A stretch of 64,000 nucleotides of DNA, taken from NCBI GenBank assembly GCA_963675745.2, contig CAXXWX010000001.1, positions 96,001 through 160,000 of the forward strand, written 5' to 3'. Positions 32,701 to 60,874 of the stretch are shown here, piece by piece. A program made the translations under genes and the position numbers. Below the pieces are notes generated by a model that made no database searches, was not told the DNA's origin, and was given only the letters and a program-made list of their open reading frames with translations. How positions within the stretch are numbered: the stretch's first letter is position 1; each line of letters opens with the position of its first letter. Origin of the DNA: Phycisphaerae bacterium. GTDB taxonomy: Bacteria; Planctomycetota; Phycisphaerae; UBA1845; Fen-1342.

Positions 32701-32967
32701 CGTCAGGTGCACGACGTGTCCCGCGACCGGCAGCCCGCCGGCATCGAGCAGGCGCACGACGATGACGCCGCGGTCCGTGCCGTCGGCCAGCACGCTGTCA
32801 TCGGCGGCGAAGACCTGTGACACGCTCCCGTCGGTTTGCGCAAAGGCACCGACCGGCAGTGCGGCCATCAGCAGCACGATTGCCAGCAGCTTTCCCGTGC
32901 CGACCCCACGCGCTGTCAGAAACGCCCGAAGATTCTGGTTTGGGAGAACGCTCTTCCCGCTCTGCAT
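26764..32967 (-). CDS. Giant invasin/intimin-like surface protein: 10 Big_1 Ig repeats, Cys-containing Ig domain, 3 CARDB-like domains, DxDGDG Ca-binding (TSP3-like) repeats, C-terminal Cys-Gly/TM/poly-Arg tail
   Basis: GGAGG before ATG 32967; signal peptide ending AFA-Q. Repeats of S.V.A..G.A.ADG.D...ITVTL.D...NPV.G..V.L; (L/I)D....[14 protein letters not shown]; tail [29 protein letters not shown]. Confidence 0.85.
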
Positions 32968-33260
32968 GACGAAACCTCCGAGTTGGAGCGTGATTTGTAA
33001 GCGACTCATGTCGTTCATACTCCGCACTGGCTGGAAAACCAGCGCGATGAACTACGCGGATACGAAACCACATCACCCGCCGCAATCCATTCACGGGCGC
33101 TACTGCCAGACGTCAGTCATCCATGCGACGCCTTATCTGATTGTCCAGTCGCCTTGTGCGGTCAGCGGCCAGCGGTGCCGCATGATCGCCAAGTGCCCGG
33201 CCCGTCACATTCTAGGCGCGCCACGGCGCCCGTTCGAGTCGTCTTTGCGTGCCGCGCTGA

Positions 33261-34382
33261 TTACGGTGTCGCACCAAGGCCCGCGGGCCCGACGGTGCGC
33301 CGCCCACCCGCTCCGGTTCCCGGGATGGCGAGCTGCTGCAATCCACGAAAGCCCAGACCGCGGCTGCCGGTCTGCTCCAGTACCGCGGCGGCGGCGTTAT
33401 TCAACTGGATCGCAGTGACACCCTCGCCGACGTTGCGAAGATTCTGCACGCTGAGCGAGGCCGGCGAGAGCAGCGGCACCTGGTTAGCGGCGTCAAACGG
33501 CTGGGTTTCCGCCGAGCCACCACGCGTGCTCGACCGCGATGACCGGGAAATCTGCTGCACAGTCTGGCGGATTTCCGGATTGAAGCGGTACTCACGCAAG
33601 CGCGCGACGACGTACTTCGCCCCGGCATACTGGTCCCAGGCGATGATCTTGCGGAACAACTTGGCTTCTATGTCACTGCGCGCGGCCTGAGCCGAGGCTA
33701 CGCCGAGCACGCGTCCGGGCGACTGGTCAAAGCCGGTGTCAGCCGACCACTGGTCGAGTGAACCAAGCGTCTGCTCACCGTCGCGCGAGATGGCCAGCAA
33801 CTTGCCGGATTCGAGTTCGACCGAATCGTCGCCGACCAGGATTTCCGTCGCGGTGCCATCGCTGGTTATGAATCCCAGATCGAGCGTATCCGGACCGCGC
33901 CGCACAAACGTCCGCCCGGGCGGCGCCGCGACTTCCACGATGTTCTCGGTGTCAGGCAAGTCGTCCATGGGGATCAGCAATGTGGTCCCTATTTCAAACT
34001 CGTCGACGCCGGCGGCCTCCAGCATCAGGCTGCCATCACGCAGCTCAATGGCCACGCCACCCGTCAGATCATCGAGCGTTACGGCCAGCTCGGCCGGCCC
34101 GACCAGCACGGCGACCACCCCGGTATCGGCGAACATCATCACACGCTGGCCGGCGCTGACGCGCAGCACACCCGGGAAGACGGTGCTGCCCAGCGAAAGA
34201 AACTGAGCCTCCGCCTCGTCGATCTCCAGCGTGACGGCTTCGCGGTCGGTGGTTGACGTCACGACGAAGAGCTCTTGCGCAAACGCCGGAGCCCCGGCAA
34301 CCGCACATAGCACGACCAACACCAGCGGCCATCGCCCCACCCGAACGCCGCCGACCGCACCTGATTTGCTCTCAGTATTCAT
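33261..34382 (-). CDS. Exported protein, possibly FecR-like beta domain
   Basis: Signal peptide (..APAFAQ). LRVSAGQRVMMFADTGVVAVLVGPAELAV...IELRDGSL resembles the FecR periplasmic domain. Translationally coupled to the upstream gene (shared base 34382). Confidence 0.5.
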   Translation of the reverse strand: MNTESKSGAVGGVRVGRWPLVLVVLCAVAGAPAFAQELFVVTSTTDREAVTLEIDEAEAQFLSLGSTVFPGVLRVSAGQRVMMFADTGVVAVLVGPAELAVTLDDLTGGVAIELRDGSLMLEAAGVDEFEIGTTLLIPMDDLPDTENIVEVAAPPGRTFVRRGPDTLDLGFITSDGTATEILVGDDSVELESGKLLAISRDGEQTLGSLDQWSADTGFDQSPGRVLGVASAQAARSDIEAKLFRKIIAWDQYAGAKYVVARLREYRFNPEIRQTVQQISRSSRSSTRGGSAETQPFDAANQVPLLSPASLSVQNLRNVGEGVTAIQLNNAAAAVLEQTGSRGLGFRGLQQLAIPGTGAGGRRTVGPAGLGATP

Positions 34383-36403
34383 CAGAAGGCCACCTCAAGT
34401 CGCACGCCGTAGATCGCACGGTCGTACTCGTAAATATCTTCGCCCAGGCGGTTCCAGATGTTCGAGTCTTCGAGAATAACCTCGACTCCGGCGCGGAGCT
34501 TCATGGCGAGCGTGCGCCAATCTTCGCGCTCGCCGGCGTCGATAATCGTGTAGGTCAGGCCAAAGTCGTAGCGCTGCCCGAAATTGGAGCGCTCCTTGCG
34601 CTCGTAGTCGAAGATGCTGGCGCTGCTGTGGTCCTCCCAACTGAATTCGCCGTCAACTTCGAAGGCAAGCCGGTAGGGCAACGGAACCTCGACACCCCAC
34701 AGAATCGAGTGGCCGCGCAGGTCGAACTCCGTGCCGCGCGTGCGTTCGTCACGGTAGGCATACCCGATATAGACATTGAGCCACTCGTCGCCGAAGAGCT
34801 CACGTTCTTTTTCGTGCGTGTCGAAGTACGGTTGCATGTAGGGAAGATTCTGGGCCTGCACGATGAAGAACGTGTGCTGAGCACCGACCGCCTGGTACGT
34901 GCCGTCACGCTCCAGCCGAAAATCACTGATGGGCTCGAGGTAGTTGCGGTCGTCAAAGGTGTAGTAAAAGTCGGTGCGCCCCCGGTCGATCGCGACGCGG
35001 CTCTCATCCTCCATCCGCCAACTCCAGGAGATCACCGGCGTCAGTCGGTGGCTGGAGATGAACGGGTCGTGGCCGAGCATGGTGTAGGAATACTCGTACT
35101 GCAAGCCAACGTACAAGTCGCGCATCGGCTGCCAATTGGCATACGCGCGACCGGAATACCGGTTCACGTCGAACTCGGTGATGTTGGGCTGCCATACGTA
35201 TGAAGCGCTGCCGCCAAACCCCAGGGTGAGGCTTTCGCCGGGGATCGGCATTTCATCGCCCGTGAGGTAGCGGCTGATGTTGAAATCGGCCAGCGTATCG
35301 AAGCGGTAGTCTTCGGACTGCTTGATGCCGAGCGGCAACGCCGTGTCGTGGCCGAGCAGGATCACATTGGTGTCAAAGGCGTTGCCGATTTGCAGACGGC
35401 CTTCGAGTTCCCAGGGGCCGAGCGGCGCGGGCACTGGCAGCGTCATGCGGTCCTGCCCGCCTCGCTGCACTTCATCAAGCTTGTTCACGACGGCTTCGGC
35501 ATTGCGCGCCAGCAGTGTCCCTTCAGCGCGCTCGATCACTTCGAGGAACAATTGACGTGCCAACTGATTGTCGCGCTGCAAAATGCTCAACAGCGCGTTG
35601 TAGTAGGTAATGACGGTCTTGAAGTCCTCGAGCTCACCCGGCGTGATGCGGTTGGCCATGCTGTCCTGTTGGGCGAGTTCAGCAGCGCGCTCCAGATCCT
35701 GCACGGCCTGTTCAACGGCGCGGGCCGCTTCGGTGCGCATCCTCAGGCGACCGTATTCGTCGGCCAGGCGATAGTGGGCAACGCCGAGATAGAAGTAGCC
35801 GAAGCGATCTTGAGCACCGTCTTCGGTCTCGCTCACGTAGCGGGTGAGAGTCTCTTCAGCCCGTTGGGCAAGCTGGAAGGGCTCATCGTCCAGCGAGGCC
35901 GGCTGGTCCTTGGCGAGTTGAGCGATGCCGAGCAAAAGCGCGGCGCGCACCATCTCGGCGGTCGGGTCCACCTGCCCAACTACGTTTTCGAAGTGCTGCT
36001 GTGCGATCTCGAATTGTGCGCGCGCGGCGGCGGCCTCATCGAGCTGAGTCGCCAGGGCGGCGGCCTCCGCCGGTTCATCACCGGCGGCTTGCGCGCTTTG
36101 GGCCTCGCCGCCGGCGGCCTGGGCCGCGGTGGCATGATCAAGACCGCGATCAAGCGCGATCAGGCCCAGGTAGTAAGCGCATGCGACGGCCCGGGGGCCC
36201 TGCGGGTCGGACGCGAGCAGGCGGTCGAAGATCTCGGCGGCACTCTCGCGGTCTTCCGCCAGATAGGCGCGGATGGCACGGTTTAGATCGATGAGTTCAG
36301 TGCTGGGGGCCGCCGCGGGCTCCTCTTGTGCGGCCGCCGGCACCGCGACGTACGCCAGGCCCAGAAGCGACCACGCCGCTGCCATGGTGAATAGCGCTTT
36401 CAT
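34382..36403 (-). CDS. TPR-containing outer-membrane beta-barrel protein (Slam-like architecture)
   Basis: ATG 36403 and signal peptide; TPR-like helices (AYYLGLIAL, YFYLGVAHY); C-terminal ~310 aa of amphipathic strands starting near AFDTNV; ends YGVRLEVAF (terminal Phe, BAM-type signal). Confidence 0.75.
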   Translation of the reverse strand: MKALFTMAAAWSLLGLAYVAVPAAAQEEPAAAPSTELIDLNRAIRAYLAEDRESAAEIFDRLLASDPQGPRAVACAYYLGLIALDRGLDHATAAQAAGGEAQSAQAAGDEPAEAAALATQLDEAAAARAQFEIAQQHFENVVGQVDPTAEMVRAALLLGIAQLAKDQPASLDDEPFQLAQRAEETLTRYVSETEDGAQDRFGYFYLGVAHYRLADEYGRLRMRTEAARAVEQAVQDLERAAELAQQDSMANRITPGELEDFKTVITYYNALLSILQRDNQLARQLFLEVIERAEGTLLARNAEAVVNKLDEVQRGGQDRMTLPVPAPLGPWELEGRLQIGNAFDTNVILLGHDTALPLGIKQSEDYRFDTLADFNISRYLTGDEMPIPGESLTLGFGGSASYVWQPNITEFDVNRYSGRAYANWQPMRDLYVGLQYEYSYTMLGHDPFISSHRLTPVISWSWRMEDESRVAIDRGRTDFYYTFDDRNYLEPISDFRLERDGTYQAVGAQHTFFIVQAQNLPYMQPYFDTHEKERELFGDEWLNVYIGYAYRDERTRGTEFDLRGHSILWGVEVPLPYRLAFEVDGEFSWEDHSSASIFDYERKERSNFGQRYDFGLTYTIIDAGEREDWRTLAMKLRAGVEVILEDSNIWNRLGEDIYEYDRAIYGVRLEVAF

Positions 36404-36514
36404 ATGCAACACCCCACGGGGTTGGCATAGGGCGGCACGTCCACCGACGCGCCAGCCCCCTTCCGACTCGCTTGACCCAGACCGCGCCCCACACACCTGA
36501 CGGCGACCGGTCTA

Positions 36515-36688
36515 CTAAGTCGTCGCCTGCGTCACAAGTGAGATGGTTTGACCGAGCATGTCGGCGGTTACGCGCGCAAACTCGGTGCGCAGGAAATCAA
36601 ACAACTGCTGCTGCGAGGCGCACCCCCCCAACGCCAAGCACACACCGCCGGGCACAAACCATCTGCTCATTTTCATGACAATGCGCAT
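36515..36688 (-). CDS. Small putative lipoprotein (57 aa)
   Basis: GGAG upstream of ATG 36688; lipobox LGGC; amphipathic helix; ends QATT. Confidence 0.65.
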   Translation of the reverse strand: MRIVMKMSRWFVPGGVCLALGGCASQQQLFDFLRTEFARVTADMLGQTISLVTQATT

Positions 36689-36708
36689 ATTGAGCTCCAT
36701 CTCCCGCG

Positions 36709-36909
36709 TCAGGTCGTCATCCGGACCAGCGCGTTGTCCAGCAAAAAGAAGATCGTGTCCGAGATTACCGCGCCAATCTGCGGCAACAGCACCTGCTGCG
36801 CGATCACATTGTTCTGGTCGTTGAGCGCACAGGAGCCAGCCTGCAACAGCGCAGCTCCCCCACACACGCTCACGAGCCACTGCGCAAAACGCATCTTAGC
36901 GGTAGTCAT
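36709..36909 (-). CDS. Small putative lipoprotein (66 aa)
   Basis: GAGGAG about 10 nt upstream of ATG 36909; lipobox-like AGSC; amphipathic/hydrophobic helix; ends RMTT. Confidence 0.65.
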   Translation of the reverse strand: MTTAKMRFAQWLVSVCGGAALLQAGSCALNDQNNVIAQQVLLPQIGAVISDTIFFLLDNALVRMTT

Positions 36910-37026: not shown

Positions 37027-37244
37027 GTCCGAGACGCGGGTTAGTTGTCGGCGCGGCGCGCGCGCCGACCCGGCAAGGGGACACACTGTAACGCCGTCAC
37101 TTCGGCGCCATTTTCCGCGCTACCATTGTCGTGAGACACGGAAGCGTATAAGAAGCGCATCTGTCCTGCTTGTGAGTGCAGGCGGATATCCCCTCACGGT
37201 GCCGGGGCTGGCTGGCGCCCGCGAACACCCAGGCGACTTTGGTC

Positions 37245-40200
37245 ATGGCCGCCACGTTTCGACGTCTTTTTCTCAAACCACCGTCCGCGACCCCGGAGCA
37301 GCTCGGTGAGCTGCGCGACGGGCTGCAAGCCGCGGCGCATGCGCAGAATCGCCTGGCGGCCAAGTCACTGCACATCCTGCAATTCCAGGGAGCACTCCAG
37401 GAGGACGAGCACCACTTCTTCATCGAGCACGAGCCGGCTGAGCCACTCGTCCTGGGCGATATATTCGACCCGAAGGGCATGCGCATGGCCGGCGGGCAAC
37501 TCGTGCAGATCCTGGCGGCCCTGGCCGACGCGTTGTCCGCGGCCCACTCCGCCGGCAGCGCTCGTTCGACCGTACACGGCGGGCTGGCCCCCGGCGTGCT
37601 CGTGGCCGGCGAAGACGGAGTGGTCAAGGTCACGGACTTTGGGTTCGCCGTGGAAGCCTGCCGCGCGCTGGGTGTTGAAAGCTACCTCAACCTCGCGGTC
37701 AGCCCCTGCGAGACCTCGACCGGCGAATGGGATGTTGCCGACCCCGGCGCAACGCATCGCGACGACCGCATATGCGCGTTCATCGACCCTGACAAGCACG
37801 GGCAGGGCACGCTGAGCACATTTGAAGCCGGTTCGGACATAATCGCCGCCGGCATGCTGCTGTACGTTCTCGCCGAACATGTTCACCCCTACCTGCACTC
37901 CATACCCGGGGCCCAGCGCATCGTGGACATCTCGCGGATGTCGGCGTATGGGGTCCCACGCCCCGTGCAGCGGGAGGATCTGTGCTCGACGAAGAAGCCG
38001 GCGCTGCGCGCGTGGGTCTCGCTCGTCGAGGGCATGATCACGCGCGAGCCGGCCAAGCGTCCCTCGGCCCGGCAGGTTGCCGAAGAGATAGAGAAGCACG
38101 CCAAGGGTGTCGACAGCGAGAGCATCCAGGTTCAGCGCTGGCTCGCCCAGGTGGAGGCCATGTTCGGCGCGCGCCAGTGGGATGAGCTCGAGGCGCTGCT
38201 GCGAGATCGGCCGGCCCTGGACGACCAACCCGTAGAGGTACATGACCGGCTGACCACAATTGAGGATCAGTCCAAGCGTGAGCGGGCGGCTGATGAGCGC
38301 CGCGCGGCGGTCGAACGCGACCATCGCATGGCCAACTGGTGGTTCAAGAGCCTGGAGGAAGCCGTCAACTCGGATGAGTGGCACACGGCCTACCGACTGC
38401 TGGACGAACGCCCGCCCTTGACGCACTGGCCGGAGAGGATCGAGCAGCAAGTCGCGCCGCTGGCCAAGCGGATCAGACAGGTGCGTGCCGAGCATGAGCT
38501 GCACACCTGGCATGAATCCCTCCAGAACGCGCACGATGCGGAAGACTGGAAGACAGTGGCCACCCTGATCGGTAAGCGCCCGGCGCTGGAGCACTGGCCG
38601 CAGGACATTGCGGAGAACACCGCGCGCATCGAGGAGGCCTTCGAGGCACACCAGGCGGCCATGCGCGCCGAGCGCGAGCGCATTGCGGCCGACCACAAAG
38701 TGGCCCAGGAATGGCTTGGCCAAGCTCAGGCCCTGGCCGCCAAGGAAGAGTGGGTAAGTGCGATTGACAGTCTGGCCGAGCTGCCGCAGATCAAGCACTG
38801 GCCGGACGGCCTGCGCGAGCAGGTCGATGAGCTCGAGGATGAGTACCGCTCGCAGCTTGGCGAATCCGTCGTCGCCAATCTCGACGCCTTTACGGATAGT
38901 GTCGCGCGCCAGGCCGGTGAGATGGCGCGCGAACTCGTGCCGGATAGTTGTGGCGGCCTGCTCGCGCCTGACCGCGTGGAAACCAAGGTCGACTTCGTGA
39001 TGTGGGCGCCACCCGACACCGACGCACACGGGCGCGCGCGGGTGGTCGTGCGACTGACTCCGGAAACAGCCGGCGACAAGGCCGAACCGCTTCAGGGCCA
39101 ACTTGATTTTCGCCTGAAGGCTGTCGAGGTGCTGATCACAGGAGGCGAGGCCGAATTCCGCGCGCAGATCAGCCAGGGGCTGCCCGATCTGTTGTTTAAA
39201 CGCCAGCAGGCGGAGGTGGCGGCCCTGCAGGAGCGCCTGCGCGACAGCGTGTTTCCCAATCTCAGCGTCAGTGCTCAGCTCGACACGCCCGAGGAACAGC
39301 TCCGCGCGAAGATCGGCCTGCTGGGCAGCGACGCATCCACCGGCCAACTCGAGGTTGCCCTGCGCTGGGAGGCGGACAGCCTGACCTGGGTACCGGTCGA
39401 CGCGGCGGGTCTCGTGAGTCATGCGCTGGAAATCGCGCAGACAATCACCACGGCCGCGGTGCGCGAACGGCTCGTCACGAGTTGCGAGCCACTCGGGCCC
39501 TATCGCGACGCGCTGTTGCCGATTCTGGGTGCGGGCGCAGCCGAGAGCGGCGACAAGCTTCCCAAGACGCTGAAGTACACAGCCGAGGTCGTGATCCAGT
39601 CAGGGCCGCGCCGTCTGGCCTTGCCTTTAGCCGTCCTTGCTGTGGAGTGCACGGAGGTGGGTCGGGCGGATGTCAGCATCAACGCCGAGGAGATTTGTCG
39701 GCGGTTGGATGAGCTGCTGCTGGCGGCGCAGGAGAGCTATCGCGCCGGGTTGTTTGAACAGTCGCGGCAGTGGGGACACACCAGTACGGCCCGCGCGCGA
39801 GTTGCGGTCCAGCCCAAACGCATCACGGTCCCAACCGACGAGATCCGCTTTGATTTGCGCCCGCAGGGCGCCGACCCCGCCACAGTCACCGGGAAGTGGG
39901 ACACTGGGCGCTTCGCCTACGTTTTCTCGAACGAGGCCCAGCAGATCCTCACGAAGCTGCTGGGCGAAACGCCGGAGAACTTCGGGGATGTGCCGGTCTC
40001 ACTCGAGGCCGCCCAGAAGCGCGGCAAGAGCCGCGGCGGCTTGTTCGTTGGCGGAGCGGTCCTGGTGTTGGTGGCAGTGAGCGTGGTGGCGTACCTCGGC
40101 GTGTTCCGAACGCCAGCGCCGCCGCCGGCGCCGCCACCAGCACCAGTGGCGCCGCCGGACCCGATGAACTCGACCGTCACCACCGCGGACGGCATGGCGG

Positions 40201-41993
40201 TGGCCAACGGCGTTGATACGGAGAGGGTCACGGTCACGCTGATCGACGCGGATAACAACCCGGTGCCGAATCACAGCGTTTCGCTCGAGGTCATCGCCGG
40301 TGGCGCTGACAACGTTGACATCAGCGCCGCCTCCCGGCGGTCCGACCCCGAGACAGGCGTCGTAACGTTCGACGTCACGTCAACCGAACCCAAGTCTATC
40401 ACGGTCCGGGCCGTCACCACGACCGACAGCCTGACCCTCACCCCCGATGTCAACATTGTCTTCGAGCCCGGTGCCCCCGCCGGGCTCAGATACGTCATAC
40501 AGCCGGTGGACTCCGACATCGGCACACCGCTGGTCGTCGCCATCGAGGTTCTCGACAACGCTGATGCTGACGCCCCCGCCGCGAACCGCGTGGTTGATTT
40601 CAACGGCGCCGTGACCTTGCAACTCCTGAACCCGGAGGGCTGCGCCGGCACGCTTGCCGCAACCACGACGGTCAATGCGGTGAACGGCCTCGCCGAGTGG
40701 ACCGACGCCGAAGACCTGACCATCGATACGGTGTGCAGCGGCTATCGGCTGCGCGCCGCGGCGCTGACCTTCACGCGCGATTCGCAGCCGTTCAGCATCA
40801 CCGCCACCACGACCGACCCGGGAGCGCCGCGCGCGGCGGCCGATCTGGTTCGAGAGCTCCGAGAGCACATGGAGGCGCAGTTTGACCTGACTGGCGTCCC
40901 GAGCGCTCAGTTGGCCGACCTGCTCCGGGTGTTCATCCCCGAAGATGCGCGGGCCACGGGCGAGAAGCTGATCGCCACGCTGGTGCCGCTGGCCCAGGAC
41001 GGCACGACATTCGCCGACTACCGGGCGGCCAGCGATGGCGTGGTCGAGGTGGACATCCGCGTGCCGCTCATCGCCGGCGCGGTAGCCGAGCAACGTGGCT
41101 TCGTCATGAAACTAGAGGACGACTCGTGGCAGCCCGTGTACGGCAACGTCGATCTCGTGGGCAAGCTGACCAACAGCGCCAAACGGGCGCTGCTCGACCG
41201 CGTCGCCGAGGCGCGCGAAGAAATCGAGACACACCGCGCAAACGGTGAGCTGGCAGCGGCTTACGCTCGCTTTGCCGCGAGCGCTGCGGAGCGCGCGGCA
41301 CTGCCGGACGAGGAATCCGTCCAGGCGCTGGAGTCCCTGATGGAAGCGCTTCCGCCACGCTGGGAGGTGCTTGAAGGGCAACTGGCGGACTATCAGGCTG
41401 CGGGGGCGACTGACCCTGACACCGGATATCCGACCCAGCTTCAGAAGACGGGCGAAGATGTTCCGATGTTGCTCGTGTCGGTCCCGCCGGCCGCTCCGGT
41501 TTGGGACGAGTTGGCCCAACTTAGTGTGCCGATAGTGTCCGACCAGCCGCTTGGCACGTATGTGAATTCCACCGCCGGTGAGCGTGAATGGCTGATCTAC
41601 TACATCGACGCGCGTGAGTTGGGCGCGCTGGAGAGCTTTGGCGAGGCCCAGACGCGGGCCGCGGCGCTGGGGCGCGTGCTGCCCACGCGCAGCGAGTGGC
41701 TGCTTGCCGCACTGGTCACACGTGGTCGCCCTGAAATGGCCGAGATCGCCGGCGGACTGTACGAGTGGTGCGCCGATGACCCCGTGGCCGGCGAGCGCTG
41801 GGTGTGTGGCGGCGCCACGCTCAGTATCCAGGGTGAACAGCGTATCTATCCGCAGGCGCCCGCGGCGGCGGCCGACACGGAAACCTGGTGGACCTGGCTG
41901 ACGAACCCGCTCGTCATGCAGACGCGCGCACAGGGTGACGGCCTGACCACTGCGCGTACTGCTCTGCGCCTGTATCCGCCGTCGACACCGTGA
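37245..41993 (+). CDS. T6SS-associated membrane Ser/Thr pseudokinase (PpkA-like position) with Trp-rich helical repeats, TM helix, Ig domains and C-terminal FGE-sulfatase-like domain
   Basis: Kinase fold: VHGGLAPGVL in place of HRDLKP.N, VKVTDFG, FIDPD, SDIIAAG, EPAKRPSA. TM GLFVGGAVLVLVAVSVVAYLGVF; Big_1 module; LPTRSEW, GGLYEWC and RWVCGG. Start ATG 37245 or GTG 37176. Confidence 0.8.
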   Translation: MAATFRRLFLKPPSATPEQLGELRDGLQAAAHAQNRLAAKSLHILQFQGALQEDEHHFFIEHEPAEPLVLGDIFDPKGMRMAGGQLVQILAALADALSAAHSAGSARSTVHGGLAPGVLVAGEDGVVKVTDFGFAVEACRALGVESYLNLAVSPCETSTGEWDVADPGATHRDDRICAFIDPDKHGQGTLSTFEAGSDIIAAGMLLYVLAEHVHPYLHSIPGAQRIVDISRMSAYGVPRPVQREDLCSTKKPALRAWVSLVEGMITREPAKRPSARQVAEEIEKHAKGVDSESIQVQRWLAQVEAMFGARQWDELEALLRDRPALDDQPVEVHDRLTTIEDQSKRERAADERRAAVERDHRMANWWFKSLEEAVNSDEWHTAYRLLDERPPLTHWPERIEQQVAPLAKRIRQVRAEHELHTWHESLQNAHDAEDWKTVATLIGKRPALEHWPQDIAENTARIEEAFEAHQAAMRAERERIAADHKVAQEWLGQAQALAAKEEWVSAIDSLAELPQIKHWPDGLREQVDELEDEYRSQLGESVVANLDAFTDSVARQAGEMARELVPDSCGGLLAPDRVETKVDFVMWAPPDTDAHGRARVVVRLTPETAGDKAEPLQGQLDFRLKAVEVLITGGEAEFRAQISQGLPDLLFKRQQAEVAALQERLRDSVFPNLSVSAQLDTPEEQLRAKIGLLGSDASTGQLEVALRWEADSLTWVPVDAAGLVSHALEIAQTITTAAVRERLVTSCEPLGPYRDALLPILGAGAAESGDKLPKTLKYTAEVVIQSGPRRLALPLAVLAVECTEVGRADVSINAEEICRRLDELLLAAQESYRAGLFEQSRQWGHTSTARARVAVQPKRITVPTDEIRFDLRPQGADPATVTGKWDTGRFAYVFSNEAQQILTKLLGETPENFGDVPVSLEAAQKRGKSRGGLFVGGAVLVLVAVSVVAYLGVFRTPAPPPAPPPAPVAPPDPMNSTVTTADGMAVANGVDTERVTVTLIDADNNPVPNHSVSLEVIAGGADNVDISAASRRSDPETGVVTFDVTSTEPKSITVRAVTTTDSLTLTPDVNIVFEPGAPAGLRYVIQPVDSDIGTPLVVAIEVLDNADADAPAANRVVDFNGAVTLQLLNPEGCAGTLAATTTVNAVNGLAEWTDAEDLTIDTVCSGYRLRAAALTFTRDSQPFSITATTTDPGAPRAAADLVRELREHMEAQFDLTGVPSAQLADLLRVFIPEDARATGEKLIATLVPLAQDGTTFADYRAASDGVVEVDIRVPLIAGAVAEQRGFVMKLEDDSWQPVYGNVDLVGKLTNSAKRALLDRVAEAREEIETHRANGELAAAYARFAASAAERAALPDEESVQALESLMEALPPRWEVLEGQLADYQAAGATDPDTGYPTQLQKTGEDVPMLLVSVPPAAPVWDELAQLSVPIVSDQPLGTYVNSTAGEREWLIYYIDARELGALESFGEAQTRAAALGRVLPTRSEWLLAALVTRGRPEMAEIAGGLYEWCADDPVAGERWVCGGATLSIQGEQRIYPQAPAAAADTETWWTWLTNPLVMQTRAQGDGLTTARTALRLYPPSTP

Positions 41994-42295
41994 CGCCTCG
42001 CACCGCGCGGCAGAGTCTGCTTGTCGCGGTGCCGCCCGGACCGACTGACCGGTTCTCGTCGAGTGGTTGCCGACCTTGCGCAGCGCGCCTAGCATATCAT
42101 GTGCTCGCGGAAACACTTGCCGGGTTCGGGTCGGCGGTATATTGTGCGTGGCATGGCCGTGTGGCGCTGCGCAGTGCGGGCAGTGCCTGTTAACCTGTCT
42201 TGCGGGGCAATGCCCCGCAGTGCGGCATCGACTGCTGTTCGGGCGTCGATGTCGGTCGGTCCGATCTAGGCCCCGGTGAGTGCAGGGCGTCGGCG

Positions 42296-43477
42296 ATGGC
42301 TAATAGCGAATCAGAAAACGCGCTGCGGGACGCCGCGGGCAATGCCTTCGAGTCGTTTCGCGTTGCGTTGGCCAAGGCTCCCGAGCCGGATCGCTATCGT
42401 CTGCTGGCGACATTCTTCGAGGACCTGGCAAACCACCAGCAGTCGCAAAGCGGCGTTTCAAACGCCGCCGAACGGGAACACGTTGAACTGCTGGGCAAGA
42501 AACTGCAACGCATTAATGAAGAGCGCGCGCAGCTTGCGGATGACCTGGCGGCCAGCCGTGCTGATGTGGAACATCGCCGCAAACAGCTCGAAGCGGAACT
42601 GGAACGCAGCAGCGAGCTGGAGCGAATCAGCAACGAGCAGCGGGAGCGACTTAAATCGACGCAGCAGCAATTCGCCGAGCTCGAAGAGCAGGTTATTGCC
42701 AAGAATGCGGCGTTGCACGAGGCCGAAAACCAGGTTGAAACGCTCACGCTGCGGCTTCAGCGGGCTGATCTGGCAGCCGGCGACACATCGCGTGTGGATG
42801 CCATTGAGGACGACCGGCGGGAGCTGCGCCGTCAGTTAGAGGAGCTTAGCAACGCGCGGGAGCAACTGCGTATGGACAAAGACGCCGAGATCGAACGACT
42901 CAAGACCGAATTGGCGGAAGTGCGTGCGGCCGCCGCGCGCAGCGGTGACGAGACGCTGGCGGCATTGTGGGAACGTCTGGCCCATGCCAAGCCCCACCTG
43001 GCCCCGGGCGGGGTCCAGCCCACACCGCAGGCCGCCGAGCGGCTATTCGACGCATTCATCGAGTTGGCGCTGTTCACGCATGACTTCGATCAGAGCATGC
43101 GGCCGTTTCTGGGCAGCCTGGCGCGCTACAGCGGCTCGCTGGGGCGCCCGTGGGATGCGTATGCGAAGTCACCGGGAATCGACGACCTGGTCCGCGACAT
43201 TATTGACGTGCAGGCCGGCAAGCCGGCGGCGGTGCTGAAAGCCCGCCTGGTGGCGCTGAAGCGTTGGGTGATCGCGACAATCATGGGCAGTGATACCGCC
43301 GTCGAATCGATCGCGCACGAGCTTGAAGAGCAGTTGCGCGGCGACGTCGGGATGGGAAACGATCCGAATCGCAAGGTAAAGGACTACGTTCGCGACGACG
43401 GACACCAGTTGTTCCTGGAGCATATTCGCGAGCTGCGGAGTCAGAAATTGGCCGACATCTACGCACACGGGGTATGA
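42296..43477 (+). CDS. Coiled-coil protein in T6SS cluster (unknown; possible FHA-less TagH/Fha counterpart)
   Basis: About 200-aa heptad-rich Glu/Gln/Leu/Arg region plus a helical C-terminal domain. Stop overlaps the start of the next gene (ATGA). Confidence 0.7.
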   Translation: MANSESENALRDAAGNAFESFRVALAKAPEPDRYRLLATFFEDLANHQQSQSGVSNAAEREHVELLGKKLQRINEERAQLADDLAASRADVEHRRKQLEAELERSSELERISNEQRERLKSTQQQFAELEEQVIAKNAALHEAENQVETLTLRLQRADLAAGDTSRVDAIEDDRRELRRQLEELSNAREQLRMDKDAEIERLKTELAEVRAAAARSGDETLAALWERLAHAKPHLAPGGVQPTPQAAERLFDAFIELALFTHDFDQSMRPFLGSLARYSGSLGRPWDAYAKSPGIDDLVRDIIDVQAGKPAAVLKARLVALKRWVIATIMGSDTAVESIAHELEEQLRGDVGMGNDPNRKVKDYVRDDGHQLFLEHIRELRSQKLADIYAHGV

Positions 43478-44148
43478 AAACCATGGCGAATACCGCACCA
43501 CGACCGAATTCTGTGATCGGCGCCATTCGGCGCTACGGGCTGCTTGGGGGCTGTCTGCTGGTCATGGCCATGCAGGCCGGCTGCGCGGCCCGGACCATCT
43601 CTATTTACCAGGATCCGTATATCAACACCGCGGCCCAGGCCAATCGCGCGCCGGCGGACCGCACCGGCGAACCGCTCGAGCTCGCCATCGTCTGCGTCTA
43701 TCCGGACGATCTCAAGAATCCGCAGAACGAGCTGCTGCGGCCGACGTCGTCGATCACCTCCCGCGACTGGTTCGAACGCCGACCGCAACTCGGTATGGAG
43801 AACCAGTCGGCATTCGATCTGCCCAAGGATCGCGTATACGTGATGACGATCGCCGACGACGTCTATGGACGCAAAATCGGCAGCGCGCTGCGCGGCGCCA
43901 AGCTCGACGGCGAGGCCCCCATCCAGAAAAAGGCGATCGAGTTCGATTCCTTCAAACTGCGCGACAGCGATTCGGTGATCTACGTGTTTGGCAAGTTCCT
44001 GGATTCGGCGGGCAACTACTTACCGGTGCCACCGGCCAAGTACAACCCGCCGGGCGCGTACATCCACAAGCTGAGTGTGAAAATCGGTGTCGACGCGGAT
44101 CGTCCGCTGGAAGAAGCTCAGTACATCCGCGTGCTGAACGATCGCTAG
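43474..44148 (+). CDS. T6SS lipoprotein, TssJ-like (divergent)
   Basis: Lipobox-like QAGC; YIN.....G.PLELAIVCV (similar to TssJ IN...G...P..V.VY.L); located directly before tssK-tssL-tssM. Confidence 0.6.
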   Translation: MKTMANTAPRPNSVIGAIRRYGLLGGCLLVMAMQAGCAARTISIYQDPYINTAAQANRAPADRTGEPLELAIVCVYPDDLKNPQNELLRPTSSITSRDWFERRPQLGMENQSAFDLPKDRVYVMTIADDVYGRKIGSALRGAKLDGEAPIQKKAIEFDSFKLRDSDSVIYVFGKFLDSAGNYLPVPPAKYNPPGAYIHKLSVKIGVDADRPLEEAQYIRVLNDR

Positions 44149-44238
44149 CCAAGCGGCGCGGACGCGCAGGCGCCCGCGGGCCGCGGGGAGTCACCTATCG
44201 GGGCGTCAGTCGCGGGCGCCGGCCGGAGAACAGGGCGA

Positions 44239-45660
44239 ATGACGTTTTGGACGGAGATACACTGGTACGAGGGCGTCTTCCTGCGGCCCCACCACTTGCA
44301 GGCCGCCCAGCGCCGCTCAGAGACGCTGGTACGCTCATCATTGGATGCAACGCGGTCATTCGCGTGGGGCGCGGTGGAACTGGAGATCGCCCCCGAGCCG
44401 ATGGAGAACTTCACGCTGCGCGTTGACCGCTGCGAGTTGCGTCTCAAGGACGGCACCTGGGTGCGCATCCCGGACAACACCGAGGTCCCCCCGCTTAGCT
44501 TTGAGGATGCGCTCGAAGCCGGCGGCGGCAAGGTGGATATCTACTTCGGCGTGCCGCAGATGCAGGAGGTGCGGGCCAACGCGGTCTCGCTGGAAGCGCC
44601 GGAGAAAGTCAGCGGAATCCCACGCTTTGAGCCACACCCGATCACACGCCGTGATGAAAACACGGGCGAGAATCCGCAGACGCTCTACGTACGCCGCATG
44701 CGCGGCAAGCTCTTCGTGGCCGGCGACGACATGACCGGCTATGAGGTGGTGCGCCTTTGCCGGGTGAAGCGCACCGACCGCCCCGGCGCCGTGCCCGAGT
44801 TGGATGAGAAGGGCGCGGGGCCGTTGTTGGCGATCCAGGCCGACGCCGGTCTCAGCTCGATGATCTCGTCGCTCGCGGACCAGGTGGAAGCCAAGGACGA
44901 GGTGCTGTCACGCGAGGCCCATGAACACCGCATGATGTTCACGGACGGCGTTCCGGCCAACGTGGAGCATCTGCTCCGGTTGAACGCACTGAACGGCGCG
45001 CGCACGCAGCTTCGCGCGCTGCTGCAAAGCGCGCTGCTGCATCCCTACGACATGTTTGTGGCATTATCGCGGCTGATCGGCGAGATCTCCGTCTTCCATG
45101 AAGACCTGGTGGCCCAGCCGATTCCCGCCTACGATCACGACAACCCCGGCGAGACCTTTGATCAGCTGTACCGGCGCTTGCTGGTGCTGCTGGATGCGCT
45201 GCGGCCGATGGCGTACGTCGAGCGTCCGTTCGCGCGCAAGAAGGATGAGCGCGGGCGCGACGGACTCGAGGTGGAGCTCGACCGCAGTTGGATCGACGAC
45301 AACCTGGATATGTATGTGGGCCTGCATTCAGATGAGCACGATGTCAACGAGCTCCAGCAGCACATCTACGGCACACTGGATATGAAGCTGGCCTCGCCAC
45401 GCCGCTCACCGCGGATTCACAACATCGCGGTGCGCGGCTTGCGTCTACAGATCAAGGCGGTGCCGGCGGGCACCCTCCCCCGGCGTGCCGCGCTGCACTA
45501 CTACCGCGTGGACAAGACAATCGGTCCGGACCGGACCGACTATTGGCGCGAATGCGAGCAGGAGCGGGGTATCCGCATGAGCATTCGCGAGGGTCAAATG
45601 GCGGCGATGGAGAAGTTCAAGCCGGCCCTGTACGTTTGCCTGAAGGCGCCAGCGCGATGA
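44239..45660 (+). CDS. tssK: T6SS baseplate protein TssK
   Basis: IHWYEGVFLRPHHLQ, WG, LHPY, PAYDHD and ASP...GLRL...P..LP. Confidence 0.92.
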   Translation: MTFWTEIHWYEGVFLRPHHLQAAQRRSETLVRSSLDATRSFAWGAVELEIAPEPMENFTLRVDRCELRLKDGTWVRIPDNTEVPPLSFEDALEAGGGKVDIYFGVPQMQEVRANAVSLEAPEKVSGIPRFEPHPITRRDENTGENPQTLYVRRMRGKLFVAGDDMTGYEVVRLCRVKRTDRPGAVPELDEKGAGPLLAIQADAGLSSMISSLADQVEAKDEVLSREAHEHRMMFTDGVPANVEHLLRLNALNGARTQLRALLQSALLHPYDMFVALSRLIGEISVFHEDLVAQPIPAYDHDNPGETFDQLYRRLLVLLDALRPMAYVERPFARKKDERGRDGLEVELDRSWIDDNLDMYVGLHSDEHDVNELQQHIYGTLDMKLASPRRSPRIHNIAVRGLRLQIKAVPAGTLPRRAALHYYRVDKTIGPDRTDYWRECEQERGIRMSIREGQMAAMEKFKPALYVCLKAPAR

Positions 45661-46463
45661 GCGATTATCACGACAACGTCCCGACTGTCAGACTGACGGA
45701 AGTCTGCTGGCCGGTTTTCGATTTCCTCATCAACTTTGCGCGGCAGATCAAATACAACGCCGCCCCCCCACCGGACCAGGTGCGCTTCGAAGCCCTCTCG
45801 GCCGTGCGCGACGCCGAAGATCTGGCGCGACGTGATCCGATCTCCGAGCGTCTGTGGGAAGACCGCGTCAAGGCGATGATGGTCTACCTGATAGACTACA
45901 AGATGCTCAATTGCGAGTGGGAAGGCCGCGACTTCTGGTTTGACGGGCGCTTCGAAACCGACCCCGATGTGCTCAACAACATCGAGGCGCTGGGCGGCGA
46001 GAAGTTCTTTGAGGACTGCGACGAGATTCAACGCGAGTACGAACTGGCCGAACGCCGGGACCGGCGGGACAAGCACGAGCTGGCCGAGCAACTCGCGCTG
46101 TATTTCATCTGCCTGCGGCTGGGCTTCAAGGGACAATTCCATGATCGTCCCCAGGAGTTGGCGGACTACACGCGCCGGTTGTTCACGCGCTTGCCGGCGT
46201 ATTCGTCGACGCGCGGTAAGGAAATGTTCCCTGAAACCTACCGGCACAACCAGGAACTCAGGGTGGATTACAAGCTGGGTCGCAGCTTGACGGTCGTGCT
46301 GATCGGCCTGCTGGCGGTCATCGCGATATCTCTGGTGACATTCCGTATTGCCTGGAGCCGGGCGGTAAGAGACATCCACACGGTGGCCACGGAATGGGTG
46401 TCGAGTGACAGCCAACCGGCCACGACCGGCGATGATGCGGCCGAAGATGGTGAGCAATCATAG
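45657..46463 (+). CDS. tssL: T6SS membrane protein TssL (DotU family), no OmpA domain
   Basis: GGEKFF, LYFICLRLGFKGQF and a single C-terminal TM. ATG 45657 overlaps the tssK stop. Confidence 0.88.
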   Translation: MSDYHDNVPTVRLTEVCWPVFDFLINFARQIKYNAAPPPDQVRFEALSAVRDAEDLARRDPISERLWEDRVKAMMVYLIDYKMLNCEWEGRDFWFDGRFETDPDVLNNIEALGGEKFFEDCDEIQREYELAERRDRRDKHELAEQLALYFICLRLGFKGQFHDRPQELADYTRRLFTRLPAYSSTRGKEMFPETYRHNQELRVDYKLGRSLTVVLIGLLAVIAISLVTFRIAWSRAVRDIHTVATEWVSSDSQPATTGDDAAEDGEQS

Positions 46464-46511
46464 ATTTCATAACCCGCCGCCCGACGGCGTGAGCGACTCA
46501 CGAGGTTTGCG

Positions 46512-51311: not shown

Positions 51312-51374
51312 GGACTCCAGCGGAACGGTAAGCGCCGCCCACCACGGGCCGCGCACCCTTTTGGCGTGGGTCAT

Positions 51375-52379
51375 ATGAGCTGGAAAGACCTATTCAGATC
51401 GAAGGCGGCAAAAGCCCGGCGTCAGGCTGATTCGCGCGTGCGCTGGTTCGGCAAGCTGCCGACGTACGCCGACTACTACAGCTCCCCCACCGATGAAGAT
51501 TGGGCGGTCGAGTTCAATGACTGGATTCTGACGGGCTACGAGCTGTATCACGCACGCCAGCGGGATGCCAACGGCACCGTACACGTTTCGCCCGGCACCT
51601 GCATTCTACGCCTGCCCAAGTCGCAGATGACAGTGTTCGCCTCAATCCAGGACTTCGGCGGGGACATGCGCGGCCGGCCTTTCCCATTGTGCTTCTACGT
51701 CGGGATCCCCAGCGAATTCTGCCCGGGGCCGACGTGCGACGACGCACCGGCCCTGCTCAAGCCGCTGGAACGCCTGACGGAGTTTCGCGAGCGGGTGGTG
51801 CGTTTCATCAATTCGCCGGGGCGTTTTGAGCAGGTTTTCGGCGATCTGGAGCTGGAACCGGCCACGACGGACACGACGTCGGGCGAAGCTGCCTGGAGGC
51901 AGGGGGCGCGCAAGCTCACGATGGCACAGTGGATCGAAGCCAGCCGGCCCTGCCTGAAAGCCGATGATGCCGAGGTCTGGCTTGCCCGGGTGGCTGCGTG
52001 GGGCGTGAATATCAGTGCGCTGGACTCCGCGGATTTTGAGCCGACGTTTCGGTTTCCGCTGGCGCTTTCGCTGCCGCTCGATGTTCAGGTTGCGGGCTGG
52101 TTGAACTGGCTTGGACAGAGGATGGATTTAACGCGACATCTCTTGTCGCTTGTGCTGTCCAGTGACGCGGACGGCGCAACCGGGTGGCTCAGTGTCGTGG
52201 CGCGCGAACCGATTCGTGAAGATTTTCTGTTGTGGACCCCGCTGGGCGGAGCGTTGTCGTATGTCGACGACTTGTGCGCCGCCGCCAGCGATGGGAAGCA
52301 GCAGGCGCCGACGGAATCACCGTCGACCGGCATGCCCGAGCAGTGGGCTGACTTCATTGAATCGGCGCCGGCGACTTGA
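51375..52379 (+). CDS. tagF: T6SS-associated TagF family protein
   Basis: WFGKLPTYADY and DMRGRPFP motifs; directly downstream of tssM. Start ATG 51375 or GTG 51366. Confidence 0.8.
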   Translation: MSWKDLFRSKAAKARRQADSRVRWFGKLPTYADYYSSPTDEDWAVEFNDWILTGYELYHARQRDANGTVHVSPGTCILRLPKSQMTVFASIQDFGGDMRGRPFPLCFYVGIPSEFCPGPTCDDAPALLKPLERLTEFRERVVRFINSPGRFEQVFGDLELEPATTDTTSGEAAWRQGARKLTMAQWIEASRPCLKADDAEVWLARVAAWGVNISALDSADFEPTFRFPLALSLPLDVQVAGWLNWLGQRMDLTRHLLSLVLSSDADGATGWLSVVAREPIREDFLLWTPLGGALSYVDDLCAAASDGKQQAPTESPSTGMPEQWADFIESAPAT

Positions 52380-52473
52380 CTAATGGATGGCGCAGAGCAA
52401 CACTCTGTGTCGATTCGATGACAACCGTCTAAGGTAGTTCACGCGTGAAATTCGACCCGGACGGGGTAAACCC

Positions 52474-52503
52474 TTGTCTCTGTTCAAATTGCCGTGCTAT
52501 AAT
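52474..52503 (+). promoter_or_regulatory. Sigma70-type extended -10 promoter upstream of tssA
   Basis: TTGTCT (52474-52479), 18-nt spacer, TGc-TATAAT (52495-52503), in an AT-richer intergenic gap. Confidence 0.65.
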
Positions 52504-52642
52504 GCGGCATCGGGCTGAACCTCACGCAACCACGAATCGTCGTTCGTCGGGCCGGCGACGAGTGCTGAATGGAATCAGACGCTACGGGCCAGGGTCTGGC
52601 GCGTAGTGCTTCGACATCGCGGATTGCCGCGGGGCATTAGCC

Positions 52643-54208: not shown

Positions 54209-54242
54209 CACGTGATGATGCCAGCAGAAAGGGAAGCACAAT

Positions 54243-54773: not shown

Positions 54774-54843
54774 GTGAGACCAGGTCAACGTTTGGTACCC
54801 GCAGCGCGACTGCACTGCGGCACATGAATGGAGATAGAAAAAG

Positions 54844-60814: not shown

Positions 60815-60874
60815 AGTAATGGTCGTTGAGCAATCACAGAGGGCCGCCACCGGCGGCGAAACCAAAGCGAGCGA

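Follow-up and report, generated by a model that had tools for sequence, protein, structure and literature searches.

An Adhesin-Derived Pair of Ig-Like Domains in a T6SS-Linked Pseudokinase: A Case of Local Domain Shuffling

The Locus and Its Pseudokinase

The window analyzed here is a stretch of 64,000 nucleotides from the genome of a Phycisphaerae bacterium (5.2 Mb in 28 contigs, 91% complete, 6% estimated contamination). A giant adhesin-like gene and a membrane pseudokinase gene lie in it on opposite strands, separated by three genes (Table 1). The adhesin is built from a signal peptide, 10 Big_1 domains, one two-Cys domain, and CARDB-like and TSP3 calcium-binding repeats, and its C-terminal end consists of a TM segment and an RRRR tail. 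The intervening products are a secreted protein (373 aa), a protein that has a signal peptide and whose C-terminal part is barrel-like with a final Phe (704 aa), and a putative lipoprotein (121 aa). Pfam and NCBIfam searches returned nothing usable for these three or for the 665- and 224-aa neighbors. The pseudokinase gene adjoins TssK/TssM, and Pfam matches to Tss genes downstream show that the T6SS context proposed from the letters alone is real; the set comprises a coiled-coil protein, a lipoprotein, TssK, TssL, TssM, a weak TagF match (TagF_N, E 0.003), TssA, TssC, TssF, TssG, and ClpV.

In five other genomes as well (G019, G015, G022, G004, and G002), the adhesin operon lies divergently beside the pseudokinase/T6SS operon, and the order of the intervening genes is repeated there. 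By coordinates, the same neighborhood is also found in G087, G088, G237, and G072.

Table 1. Features of the adhesin–pseudokinase locus, in window coordinates
Feature	Position	Strand	Remarks
Giant adhesin-like gene	26764..33027	-	2087 aa
Donor-type module: last Big_1 + two-Cys domain	29281..29898	-	Adhesin residues 1044-1249
Three genes between adhesin and kinase	33261..36880	-	373-aa, 704-aa, 121-aa products; divergent from kinase
Membrane pseudokinase gene	37176..41993	+	1605-aa ORF; first gene on T6SS cluster strand
Cytoplasmic kinase-like domain	37245..38165	+	Loop VHGGLAPGV, DFG kept; lacks Gly-rich loop and VAIK lysine region
Single transmembrane segment	40032..40106	+	About residues 953-977
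Short proline-rich linker RTPAPPPAPPPAPVAPPDPM	40110..40166	+	Remnant of 58-97-aa linker of orthologues
Captured domain 1: Big_1 Ig-like	40167..40466	+	Kinase residues 998-1097; 64/99 identical to adhesin's last Big_1
Captured domain 2: two-Cys Ig-like, ~105-aa planctomycete repeat family	40467..40805	+	Kinase residues 1098-1210; 66/107 identical to adhesin copy
Conserved periplasmic C-terminal region	40806..41990	+	Aligns with 6 orthologues
T6SS genes downstream of kinase	42200..63646	+	Pfam; lipobox seen in lipoprotein

The true start of the pseudokinase is likely the ATG at 37245, which gives a protein of 1582 aa; the database copy (P0006) has this length, and the alignment with orthologues begins at Met 24. 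Active Hanks-type kinases carry a catalytic loop HRDxKxxN and, in the N lobe, a Gly-rich loop and the VAIK lysine. Here VHGGLAPGV stands in place of HRDLKPxN and the N lobe is truncated, which upholds the identification of the host protein as a pseudokinase. The catalytic Asp, Lys, and Asn are absent in 9/9 aligned family members. The Pfam Pkinase model (PF00069) scores 28.1 bits, under its gathering cut-off of 31.7, and a phmmer search of the PDB finds the GCN2 kinase (E 2.9e-5, residues 75–302), with HRNLKP facing HGGLAP. Hydropathy peaks at 2.63 over residues 956–974 with no second comparable maximum, and together with the alignment it confirms that the shared module follows directly after a single TM segment.

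Pfam recognizes no meaningful family in the middle 625 or the C-terminal 395 residues, and the latter give no match to FGE-sulfatase (PF03781) at E<=1. The last ~185 residues (about 41421–41975) are predicted to adopt an FGE-sulfatase/C-type-lectin-like fold (AF2 pLDDT 89.4). VIA Z is 9.2 for the Bd2740 C-domain, 8.1–8.3 for FGE structures (133–135 residues aligned, 19% identity; 8.3 over 135 residues for 2q17), and 7.0–7.5 for C-type lectins, a Z near 8 being middling, and Foldseek E-values against structures are only about 0.01. A genome-wide search found PF03781 in 16 other places, the kinase C-terminal domain not among them, and hhalign of that domain against six FGE-sulfatase domains of the same genome gave a probability of 4.3% over 15 columns around LPT(R/E)xEW.

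A Module Shared with the Adhesin

Kinase residues 998–1210 (40167–40805) align end to end with adhesin residues 1044–1249 (29281–29898, minus strand). The module is in frame in both genes, and the likeness ends at both of its borders. BLASTP gives 130/213 identical residues (61%), 156/213 positives, seven gap positions, and E 1e-86; over aligned columns the identity is 130/206, precisely the count of about 130 of 206 that the sequence-only reading had made by hand. The DNA is 69% identical over the 206 aligned codons and includes a single identical tract of 27 bases. As that reading had also claimed, the copy comprises the adhesin's last Big_1 repeat and its two-Cys domain, and the resemblance goes beyond generic Ig similarity. 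A search of the genome with the module returned 10 matches: itself, the adhesin module (63%, query 1–213), and eight other Big_1 repeats of the adhesin, which reach only from query 1 to about 115 at 35–48% identity. The full two-domain module is present at two places only in this genome, in the kinase and in the adhesin.

Pfam Big_1 (PF02369) scores 43.5 bits on the module and 38.9 on the whole kinase, above the cut-off of 34.9; Invasin_D3 also exceeds its cut-off on the module. The AF2 model of the kinase module is all-beta (pLDDT 92.3), and its top Foldseek matches, intimin D0-D1, InvE, InvD, FdeC, and invasin (6tpl at E 1.6e-9, then 5n40, 1f00, 5ldy, 4e9l, and 1cwv), point to an Ig-like beta-sandwich. 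PECAM-1 IgL1-2 is also among the fold matches. The database assigns PF26198 to the adhesin and to 4/11 other matches; it is absent from the Pfam scans made here.

The two-Cys domain had been described as unique to the adhesin. It is indeed single within this adhesin, and an HMM of it finds one match each in kinase and adhesin in this genome, but the domain is a member of a widespread family of ~105-aa repeats, of which P0007 has up to 21 tandem copies. No curated family was identified for this planctomycete Ig-like repeat or its two-Cys subclass. In seven other genomes, adhesin homologues have the two-Cys form as their conserved last copy; last-repeat domains score 91–110 bits in homologues from five other genomes and 68 in G003, against 30–55 for generic repeats. 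In a 19-domain alignment both Cys (NPxGC and VCxGY motifs) are present in the kinase copy. The kinase copy keeps 30/43 and the adhesin copy 34/43 of the positions conserved in at least five of six two-Cys subclass members; for subclass-specific positions the figures are 9/16 and 11/16. Such strong conservation may point to a specific role of the last repeat, one that the copy might have taken along.

Lineage-Specific Capture from the Adhesin

Phylogenetic trees place the kinase and adhesin copies as sisters, both for the second domain (19 rows, support 98/98) and for the two domains together (22 rows, 99/94). At E<=0.001, 957 of 1.84 billion representatives match, many proteins carrying arrays of these repeats. 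The closest of these, apart from the two copies, is 52% identical, and among the 150 best the N- and C-terminal parts of the kinase are matched by the window's own kinase only.

The pseudokinase family is found in 70/279 genomes of the order. Eight other full-length members (seven from genomes, and P0017) lack the module and have at its site either a proline-rich linker of 58–97 residues or a different, non-Ig insert, as in G002 and G030. The linker measures 58–97 aa in five orthologues, with 23–39% Pro, and is reduced here to 20 + 11 (~32) residues. Across the 279 genomes, 0 of the module matches listed fall within any of the 76 other pseudokinase places; 74 weaker module matches in the order lie beyond those listed and compared with pseudokinase genes. 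The donor-type junction of Big_1 and two-Cys domain occurs in adhesin homologues of eight genomes (G015, G064, G066, G082, G084, G063, G087, and G088). Because these adhesins have the junction while the kinases lack the module, the direction of transfer is set as adhesin to kinase, and because the module is missing from orthologous pseudokinases and, among the matches listed, from those across the order, the event is a lineage-specific capture.

On this comparative evidence, a contiguous two-domain piece of the adhesin was evidently duplicated in frame into the pseudokinase gene, only in this lineage and long ago, landing just outside the membrane within the proline-rich periplasmic linker. 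The sister placement of the copies and the module-free state of the other pseudokinases thus bear out the local capture proposed earlier. Concerted evolution, which the same proposal had entertained, is not supported, since orthologous kinases carry no module matching their own adhesin and the copies here stand at dS about 1.

Between the two copies dS is 0.97, dN 0.27, and dN/dS 0.275 (206 codons). The copy is thus judged to be old and still constrained, with both copies under purifying selection. The sequence-only reading had paired two findings as telling against capture, module-free orthologues and a copy free of purifying selection; the first was observed, yet the copy is under such selection (dN/dS 0.28). 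Relative-rate tests on the two-domain alignment were not significant with 9/9 outgroups, and branch lengths in the tree are 0.47 for the kinase copy and 0.18 for the adhesin copy. The time of insertion is poorly bounded because the searched collections hold no close relative of the kinase: the best is 38–41% identical, and a collection of 5.8 billion yielded two besides the protein itself, at 38% and 23% identity. Within the genus, G002 has a 30%-identical protein, G001 a fragment, and G003 none.

The caution that the copy might reflect mis-assembly has been largely answered. One 22,419-base contig from run X1 carries the stretch with 0 differences and holds the adhesin copy as well, and in run X2 both junctions are spanned by contigs of 555 and 470 bases; the two runs are of one sample, possibly the source of the assembly. 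With contigs of two runs bridging both junctions, mis-assembly is rejected. The copies differ at 31% of bases, so that collapsed repeats are impossible.

Function of the Captured Pair and Comparison with Known Systems

For the function of the captured pair we can only infer. Our first choice is a folded stalk that replaces part of the linker, and a shared docking surface is a serious rival. The explanation as a whole, capture with the pair serving mainly as a stalk in the kinase, seems to us quite possible, although short of probable. In orthologues, the proline-rich linker of 58–97 residues would space the conserved C-terminal sensor region, predicted to end in the FGE/C-type-lectin-like domain, from the inner membrane. 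Here the gap left by the ~32-residue linker would be filled by a rigid pair of Ig domains like those of intimin/invasin stalks, and this pair would determine how far the sensor reaches and how stiff it is. Presumably unable to phosphorylate, the pseudokinase could pass a periplasmic signal to the T6SS through clustering or scaffolding. We favor the stalk because the insert falls exactly in the linker, because its predicted fold is that of the Ig stalks of intimin, InvE, InvD, FdeC, and invasin, and because in G002 and G030 the linker site is occupied by inserts of other, non-Ig kinds. A disordered region between folded domains is described for Pseudomonas aeruginosa PpkA as well, in the available text of PMC13713981. 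Retention of both Cys and of 30/43 subclass positions in the kinase copy would argue against a pure spacer, as does a rate not clearly above that of the adhesin copy despite the longer branch. If the pair is a spacer only, the capture amounts to a modest evolutionary note.

It is conceivable, if more doubtful, that after the same capture the pair was kept as a docking surface, the kinase copy also binding the partner of the adhesin's two-Cys junction module. That partner might, with the same tentativeness, be a periplasmic or outer-membrane protein encoded at the locus or an external ligand, so that the pseudokinase would read the state of the adhesin and couple it to T6SS assembly. The conserved divergent neighborhood of the two operons in the genomes named above is in keeping with such coupling, as are the scores of the two-Cys domain, far above those of generic repeats across adhesin homologues, the Cys residues and subclass positions kept in the kinase copy, its low dN/dS, and the lack of a significant rate difference between the copies. 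However, a structural stalk would also be expected to be under purifying selection. All other sampled family members function without the module, and the basic connection of the two operons thus does not depend on it. About 20 residues separate the kinase module from the membrane, against ~840 between the adhesin module and the adhesin's C-terminal anchor, so there is no requirement for the two copies to encounter one partner at one height.

A bolder form of this idea, which we think unlikely, is that the docking part of the adhesin still works in its kinase copy, through which the pseudokinase senses the adhesin's partner or a surface cue, so that T6SS assembly would be positioned or triggered directly when the adhesin engages. 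If true, a contact-sensing input would have been made by copying the recognition part of an adhesin into a receptor, within a pseudokinase pathway that is independent of phosphorylation and belongs to an unstudied phylum.

Direct homotypic Ig–Ig binding of the kinase module to the adhesin module, giving the T6SS a self or contact signal, appears improbable. Trans-homophilic Ig pairs are known in general, PECAM-1 IgL1-2 being an example, and the common origin of the copies and their conserved neighborhood would suit this reading. Yet the copies have diverged to 61–63% identity with dS about 1, concerted evolution is lacking, and the one 27-base identical tract is the only sign of homogenization. 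A predicted complex of the two modules (11-row alignment each) received a score of 0.00 and a mark of 0.32, in a prediction made without control runs that counts neither for nor against such binding. Least credible, and largely refuted, is an assembly or binning artefact, a transfer from kinase to adhesin, or a third source for both copies: the draft state and estimated contamination of the genome lend the first some color, but the base differences between the copies and the bridging contigs (from one sample) speak against it, as do the donor-type junctions in eight genomes with module-free kinases against the second and the lack of any third protein closer than 52% against the third.

To our knowledge, when and where firing is decided in T6SSs outside Proteobacteria is largely unknown. 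The locus offers a conserved, catalytically dead kinase-fold receptor beside TssK/TssM and a giant-adhesin operon, and a natural experiment in which the same receptor exists with and without an adhesin module, a handle on the coupling of adhesion to T6SS firing. For the in-frame transfer of domains between neighboring bacterial genes it provides, besides, a clean and datable case. A full-text literature search on pseudokinase, type VI secretion, and Planctomycetes found no description of such a capture among its best matches, and in the available text of a 2026 review of T6SS accessory factors pseudokinase, planctomycet, and adhesin each have 0 occurrences.

As far as the available descriptions go, the protein resembles PpkA of the P. 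aeruginosa H1-T6SS (with TagQ/TagR/TagS/TagT) in being an inner-membrane kinase-fold protein encoded among T6SS genes, with its periplasmic part on a flexible linker. It differs from PpkA in missing the catalytic residues of the kinase loop throughout the aligned family. As in the PpkA pathway, an ABC ATPase and an FtsX-type permease are encoded close by, but the pair is absent from the syntenic G019 and G015 loci, and a reading of it as TagS/TagT was set aside on that ground. The T6SS threonine phosphorylation pathway (PpkA-PppA-Fha) has an FHA-domain substrate and a PP2C phosphatase encoded with the system. With the two Pfam models used here, FHA domains were found at nine places in the genome, 0 of them on the window's contig, and PP2C_2 phosphatase had no match in the genome (91% complete). 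In the available text of PMC13713981, an FGE-sulfatase-superfamily domain of TagR engages PpkA, and PpkA is not described as having an Ig pair taken from an adhesin. Here the kinase-like protein itself includes, as a fused part, the domain with the predicted FGE/C-type-lectin-like fold; this domain has no Pfam FGE-sulfatase match and an hhalign probability of 4%. YukC of the Bacillus subtilis T7SSb is likewise a membrane-anchored pseudokinase belonging to a secretion system, although of another type and in another phylum, and the likeness is one of available description alone.

The captured pair shares its fold and its Pfam Big_1/Invasin_D3 matches with the stalks of intimin, InvE, InvD, FdeC, and invasin. 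Those domains belong to outer-membrane adhesins, whereas the pair here resides in an inner-membrane signaling protein and takes its second domain from the ~105-aa repeat family of planctomycete-type giant proteins. As in the shuffling of Ig repeats among bacterial surface proteins, a discrete Ig block seems to have been duplicated and moved in frame; here, unlike there, the recipient is a signaling receptor, the sole fusion of this sort in the 150 best representatives that bear the module. The adhesin Ig pair in the T6SS pseudokinase is thus, judged from alignments and trees, a tidy case of local domain shuffling.

The Ig module shared by adhesin and pseudokinase

The adhesin begins with a signal peptide. 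Ten Big_1 repeats (245 bits) precede one lone copy of an Ig-like domain of about 105 residues with two cysteines; beyond this two-Cys domain lie CARDB-like repeats and calcium-binding repeats of thrombospondin type 3. Against NCBIfam the adhesin has a weak match (E 1.3e-10, far under the cut-off) to the TSP3 part of the MYXO-CTERM protein MtsC.

Both module stretches are stop-free in translation. BLASTP aligns the kinase and adhesin modules over their full length; 130 of 213 positions are identical (61%, E 1e-86, 7 gap positions), which confirms the match first seen by eye. Identity is 64/99 in the Big_1 domain and 66/107 in the second domain, and beyond either module border similarity falls to background. 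The sequence-only reading held this to be more than generic Ig similarity, and a search of the host genome (5.2 Mb in 28 contigs, 91% complete, 6% contamination) bears it out. Of the ten places matched, one is the kinase itself and one the adhesin module (63% along its whole length); the remaining eight are Big_1 repeats elsewhere in the adhesin, which cover only the first 100-115 or so module residues at 35-48% identity.

The modeled module (pLDDT 92.3, from an 11-row alignment) forms two beta-sandwich domains, and the structures it resembles most are Ig stalks, those of intimin (E 1.6e-9), InvE, InvD, FdeC and invasin.

Mis-assembly was considered with two public sequencing runs from one sample, both containing the stretch. 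In the first, one 22,419-base contig spans 39800-41200 with zero differences and also holds the adhesin copy; in the second, the upstream junction is bridged by a contig of 555 bases and the downstream one by a contig of 470, with a few strain differences. Since the assembly may itself derive from this sample, these contigs support the junctions as a check on assembly, not on biology. The differences in the second run lie at 39974, 39977, 40141, 40150 and 40409, and suggest strain variants within the same sample.

Features of the window bearing on the shared module, with the T6SS genes in order after the kinase gene
Feature	Position	Strand	Description
ABC ATPase and permease	21024-24579	-	LolD/FtsE-like ATPase and 917-aa FtsX/MacB-type permease; adjoin adhesin operon
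Adhesin gene	26764-33027	-	2087 aa; long ORF, divergent from kinase gene
Adhesin C-terminus	26764-26900	-	PFCGF, hydrophobic segment, then RRRR; resembles a C-terminal sorting tag
Adhesin copy of module	29281-29898	-	residues 1044-1249
Identical tract, adhesin copy	29335-29361	-	27 bases, nine codons (DTVCSGYRL)
704-aa protein	34382-36496	-	signal peptide, helical N-part, barrel-like C-part ending in Phe
Small ORF	36515-36880	-	lipobox-like signal sequence, …LGGC
Kinase gene	37176-41993	+	1605 aa; long ORF, divergent from adhesin gene
Kinase helical repeats	38160-38900	+	cytoplasmic part; four repeats of ~45 residues, motif W…(R/K)P.L..WP
Kinase copy of module	40167-40805	+	residues 998-1210
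Identical tract, kinase copy	40725-40751	+	27 bases, nine codons (DTVCSGYRL)
Kinase C-terminal domain	41421-41975	+	contains LPTRxEW motif
Small ORF	43474-44148	+	lipobox-like signal sequence, …QAGC
T6SS genes after kinase	downstream	same as kinase	coiled-coil protein, lipoprotein, TssK, TssL, TssM
Further T6SS genes after TssM	downstream	same as kinase	weak TagF match, TssA, TssC, TssF, TssG, ClpV

Age, direction and distribution of the copy

The copy is clearly old and shows no recent homogenization. Over 206 codons the Nei-Gojobori method gives dN 0.27 and dS 0.97, the latter a rough estimate because GC3 is above 0.8; dN/dS is 0.19 in domain 1 and 0.37 in domain 2. Across the same aligned codons the DNA agrees at 69% of bases. 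Set in this background is the identical tract of 27 bases, which exceeds the length expected from shuffling (permutation p 0.007) and may reflect either a short gene-conversion tract or constraint at the codon level. The kinase-copy branch is longer in trees (0.47 vs 0.13-0.18), but the kinase copy is not clearly the faster changing, as relative-rate counts do not clearly back the branch lengths: the second domain has 13-16 vs 3-9 unique changes, a difference that is significant for one outgroup of six, and both domains together have 22-31 vs 17-22, which reaches significance for none of the nine used. Of 43 positions that the two-Cys subclass conserves, 30 are kept in the kinase copy and 34 in the adhesin copy.

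By HMM search, the second domain belongs to a family of repeats that form long arrays within giant proteins; one database protein, which its source assigns to a Planctomycetia bacterium, has 21 copies. In the adhesin homologues of genomes G022, G008, G026, G036, G010, G003 and G011, the array ends with the two-Cys form. This form scores 91-110 bits in five of these and 68 in G003, vs 30-55 for generic repeats; the G011 copy, at 48 bits, is not above the generic range. At least eight other genomes have adhesin homologues with the contiguous Big_1 and two-Cys junction; the copying therefore ran from adhesin to kinase.

That the transfer was a local domain capture is well supported. The host's kinase and adhesin copies are sisters in a tree of 19 second domains (98/98), and again in a tree of 22 two-domain modules to which closer adhesins were added (99/94). 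The nearest adhesins after this pair share 50-55% identity with the adhesin copy and 47-52% with the kinase copy. When 1.84 billion representatives were searched exhaustively with HMMER, 957 proteins matched at E≤0.001, none of them above 52% identity to the kinase module. Among the best 150 of the 957, only the window's kinase matches the N-terminal 950 or C-terminal 392 residues of the kinase.

Of 41 close genomes, 14 contain relatives of the pseudokinase N-terminal part, and eight loci were fetched for comparison. Compared by BLASTP with nine kinase-family proteins and six adhesins, the module matches only its own kinase and the adhesins of G000, G022, G015 and G019. In four relatives (G019, G015, G004, G008) and a metagenomic protein, nothing but a proline-rich linker of 58-97 residues with 23-39% Pro separates the membrane from the conserved C-terminal region. 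The kinases of G002 (L049:3259-4251 (-)) and G030 (L051:3612-5714 (-)) bear other, non-Ig inserts in the same juxtamembrane linker, a site that seems to be an insertion hot spot. The G022 kinase gene is truncated by a contig end. The family member in G039 differs in architecture; its 1397-aa product (L052:4274-8464 (-)) has, after the pseudokinase part, the canonical kinase motifs of a Gly-rich loop, VALKV and HGDIKPQN, and would be a pseudokinase-kinase tandem replacing the membrane and periplasmic part.

More widely, among 279 genomes of the order, 70 have the pseudokinase domain at E≤1e-25 (76 places outside the host genome) and 60 have matches to the module. Among the module matches listed, all at E≤3e-9, none lies within another pseudokinase ORF, and those in G237, G087, G088, G072, G015, G019 and G022 fall in the neighboring divergent adhesin gene; 74 weaker matches are left out of this list, so that some other kinase may have an Ig domain that has diverged strongly. 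Of 12 matches in a collection of 5.8 billion proteins, only the window's own protein combines Pkinase with Big_1. The capture is therefore lineage-specific. The notion that each kinase mirrors its own adhesin through concerted evolution must be rejected, because the other kinases compared lack the module and dS is about 1. That absence was one half of an objection foreseen in the sequence-only reading; the other half, a copy free of purifying selection, fails at an overall dN/dS of 0.275.

The host protein and its neighborhood

The true start of the kinase is likely the ATG at 37245. The kinase-like domain at its beginning, at 37245-38165, scores 28.1 bits, below the Pfam threshold of 31.7. 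Alignment with the solved structure of GCN2 begins at residue 75, and the sequence ahead of it is too short for a normal N-lobe. The catalytic loop reads VHGGLAPGV opposite HRNLKP of GCN2; DFG is retained. Since all nine aligned family members share this loop, the protein is a conserved pseudokinase, as had been proposed. Beyond a single transmembrane segment (about residues 953-977), 20 proline-rich residues lead to the 213-residue module; a further 11 residues of linker connect it to a conserved C-terminal region of about 385 residues, modeled with pLDDT 89.4.

The predicted fold of the last domain resembles formylglycine-generating enzyme (FGE) and C-type lectins. VIA gives Z 8.1-8.3 against FGE (133-135 aligned residues, 19% identity) and Z 9.2 against the Bd2740 C-domain; Foldseek E-values are only about 0.01. 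The label FGE/CTLD-like would apply by fold only, since sequence searches with FGE-sulfatase were negative: Pfam gave no match at E≤1 on the C-terminal region, the domain is absent from the 16 places found by the model in the host genome, and hhalign gave 4% probability. The domain recalls TagR, here fused to the receptor.

The order adhesin, 373-aa gene, 704-aa gene and divergent kinase recurs in G019, G015, G022, G004 and G002. The 704-aa protein has no family match, and a homologue lies directly beside the G030 kinase too (L051:251-2602 (-)). A kinase gene followed by TssK, or by TssK and TssM, is also seen in G004 and G030. The small plus-strand ORF just before TssK may encode a TssJ-type lipoprotein. 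The ABC ATPase and permease are reminiscent of TagT/TagS and are missing from the syntenic loci of G019 and G015.

Possible roles of the Ig pair and known systems

In one lineage only, a T6SS-linked pseudokinase has a folded and constrained Ig pair in its juxtamembrane linker, on the periplasmic side. The simplest reading, held tentatively at a little short of an even chance, is that the pair replaces part of a flexible proline-rich spacer with a rigid one and would set the reach of the FGE/CTLD-like sensor domain. It is based on the long proline-rich linker of the orthologues, a site that tolerates other inserts, and the stalk type of the pair. A serious rival, somewhat less likely, is that the two-Cys junction domain serves the adhesin for docking and that the kinase copy has retained this surface; this would fit the subclass conservation of the domain and the conserved neighborhood of the adhesin and kinase operons. 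Direct binding between the two modules, raised earlier as homotypic, is improbable. Signaling cannot rely on phosphorylation by this protein. The significance of the capture is moderate as it stands, and would be greater were the docking proposal true.

Ig-domain shuffling and T6SS envelope sensors are known kinds. Neither such pseudokinases nor the capture was found described among the matches listed in a full-text literature search (pseudokinases, type VI secretion, Planctomycetes), and the terms pseudokinase, planctomycet and adhesin are absent from a review of accessory factors of the T6SS published in 2026. Among described systems the nearest is PpkA/TagQRST of P. aeruginosa, in which PpkA, an active kinase with a disordered linker, is engaged at its periplasmic domain by TagR, a protein of the FGE superfamily (PMC13713981). 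Unlike PpkA/TagQRST, the present system has neither an active kinase nor an FHA/PP2C partner (no FHA domain on the window's contig, no PP2C_2 match in the host genome) nor FGE-sulfatase sequence; in layout the two systems resemble each other.
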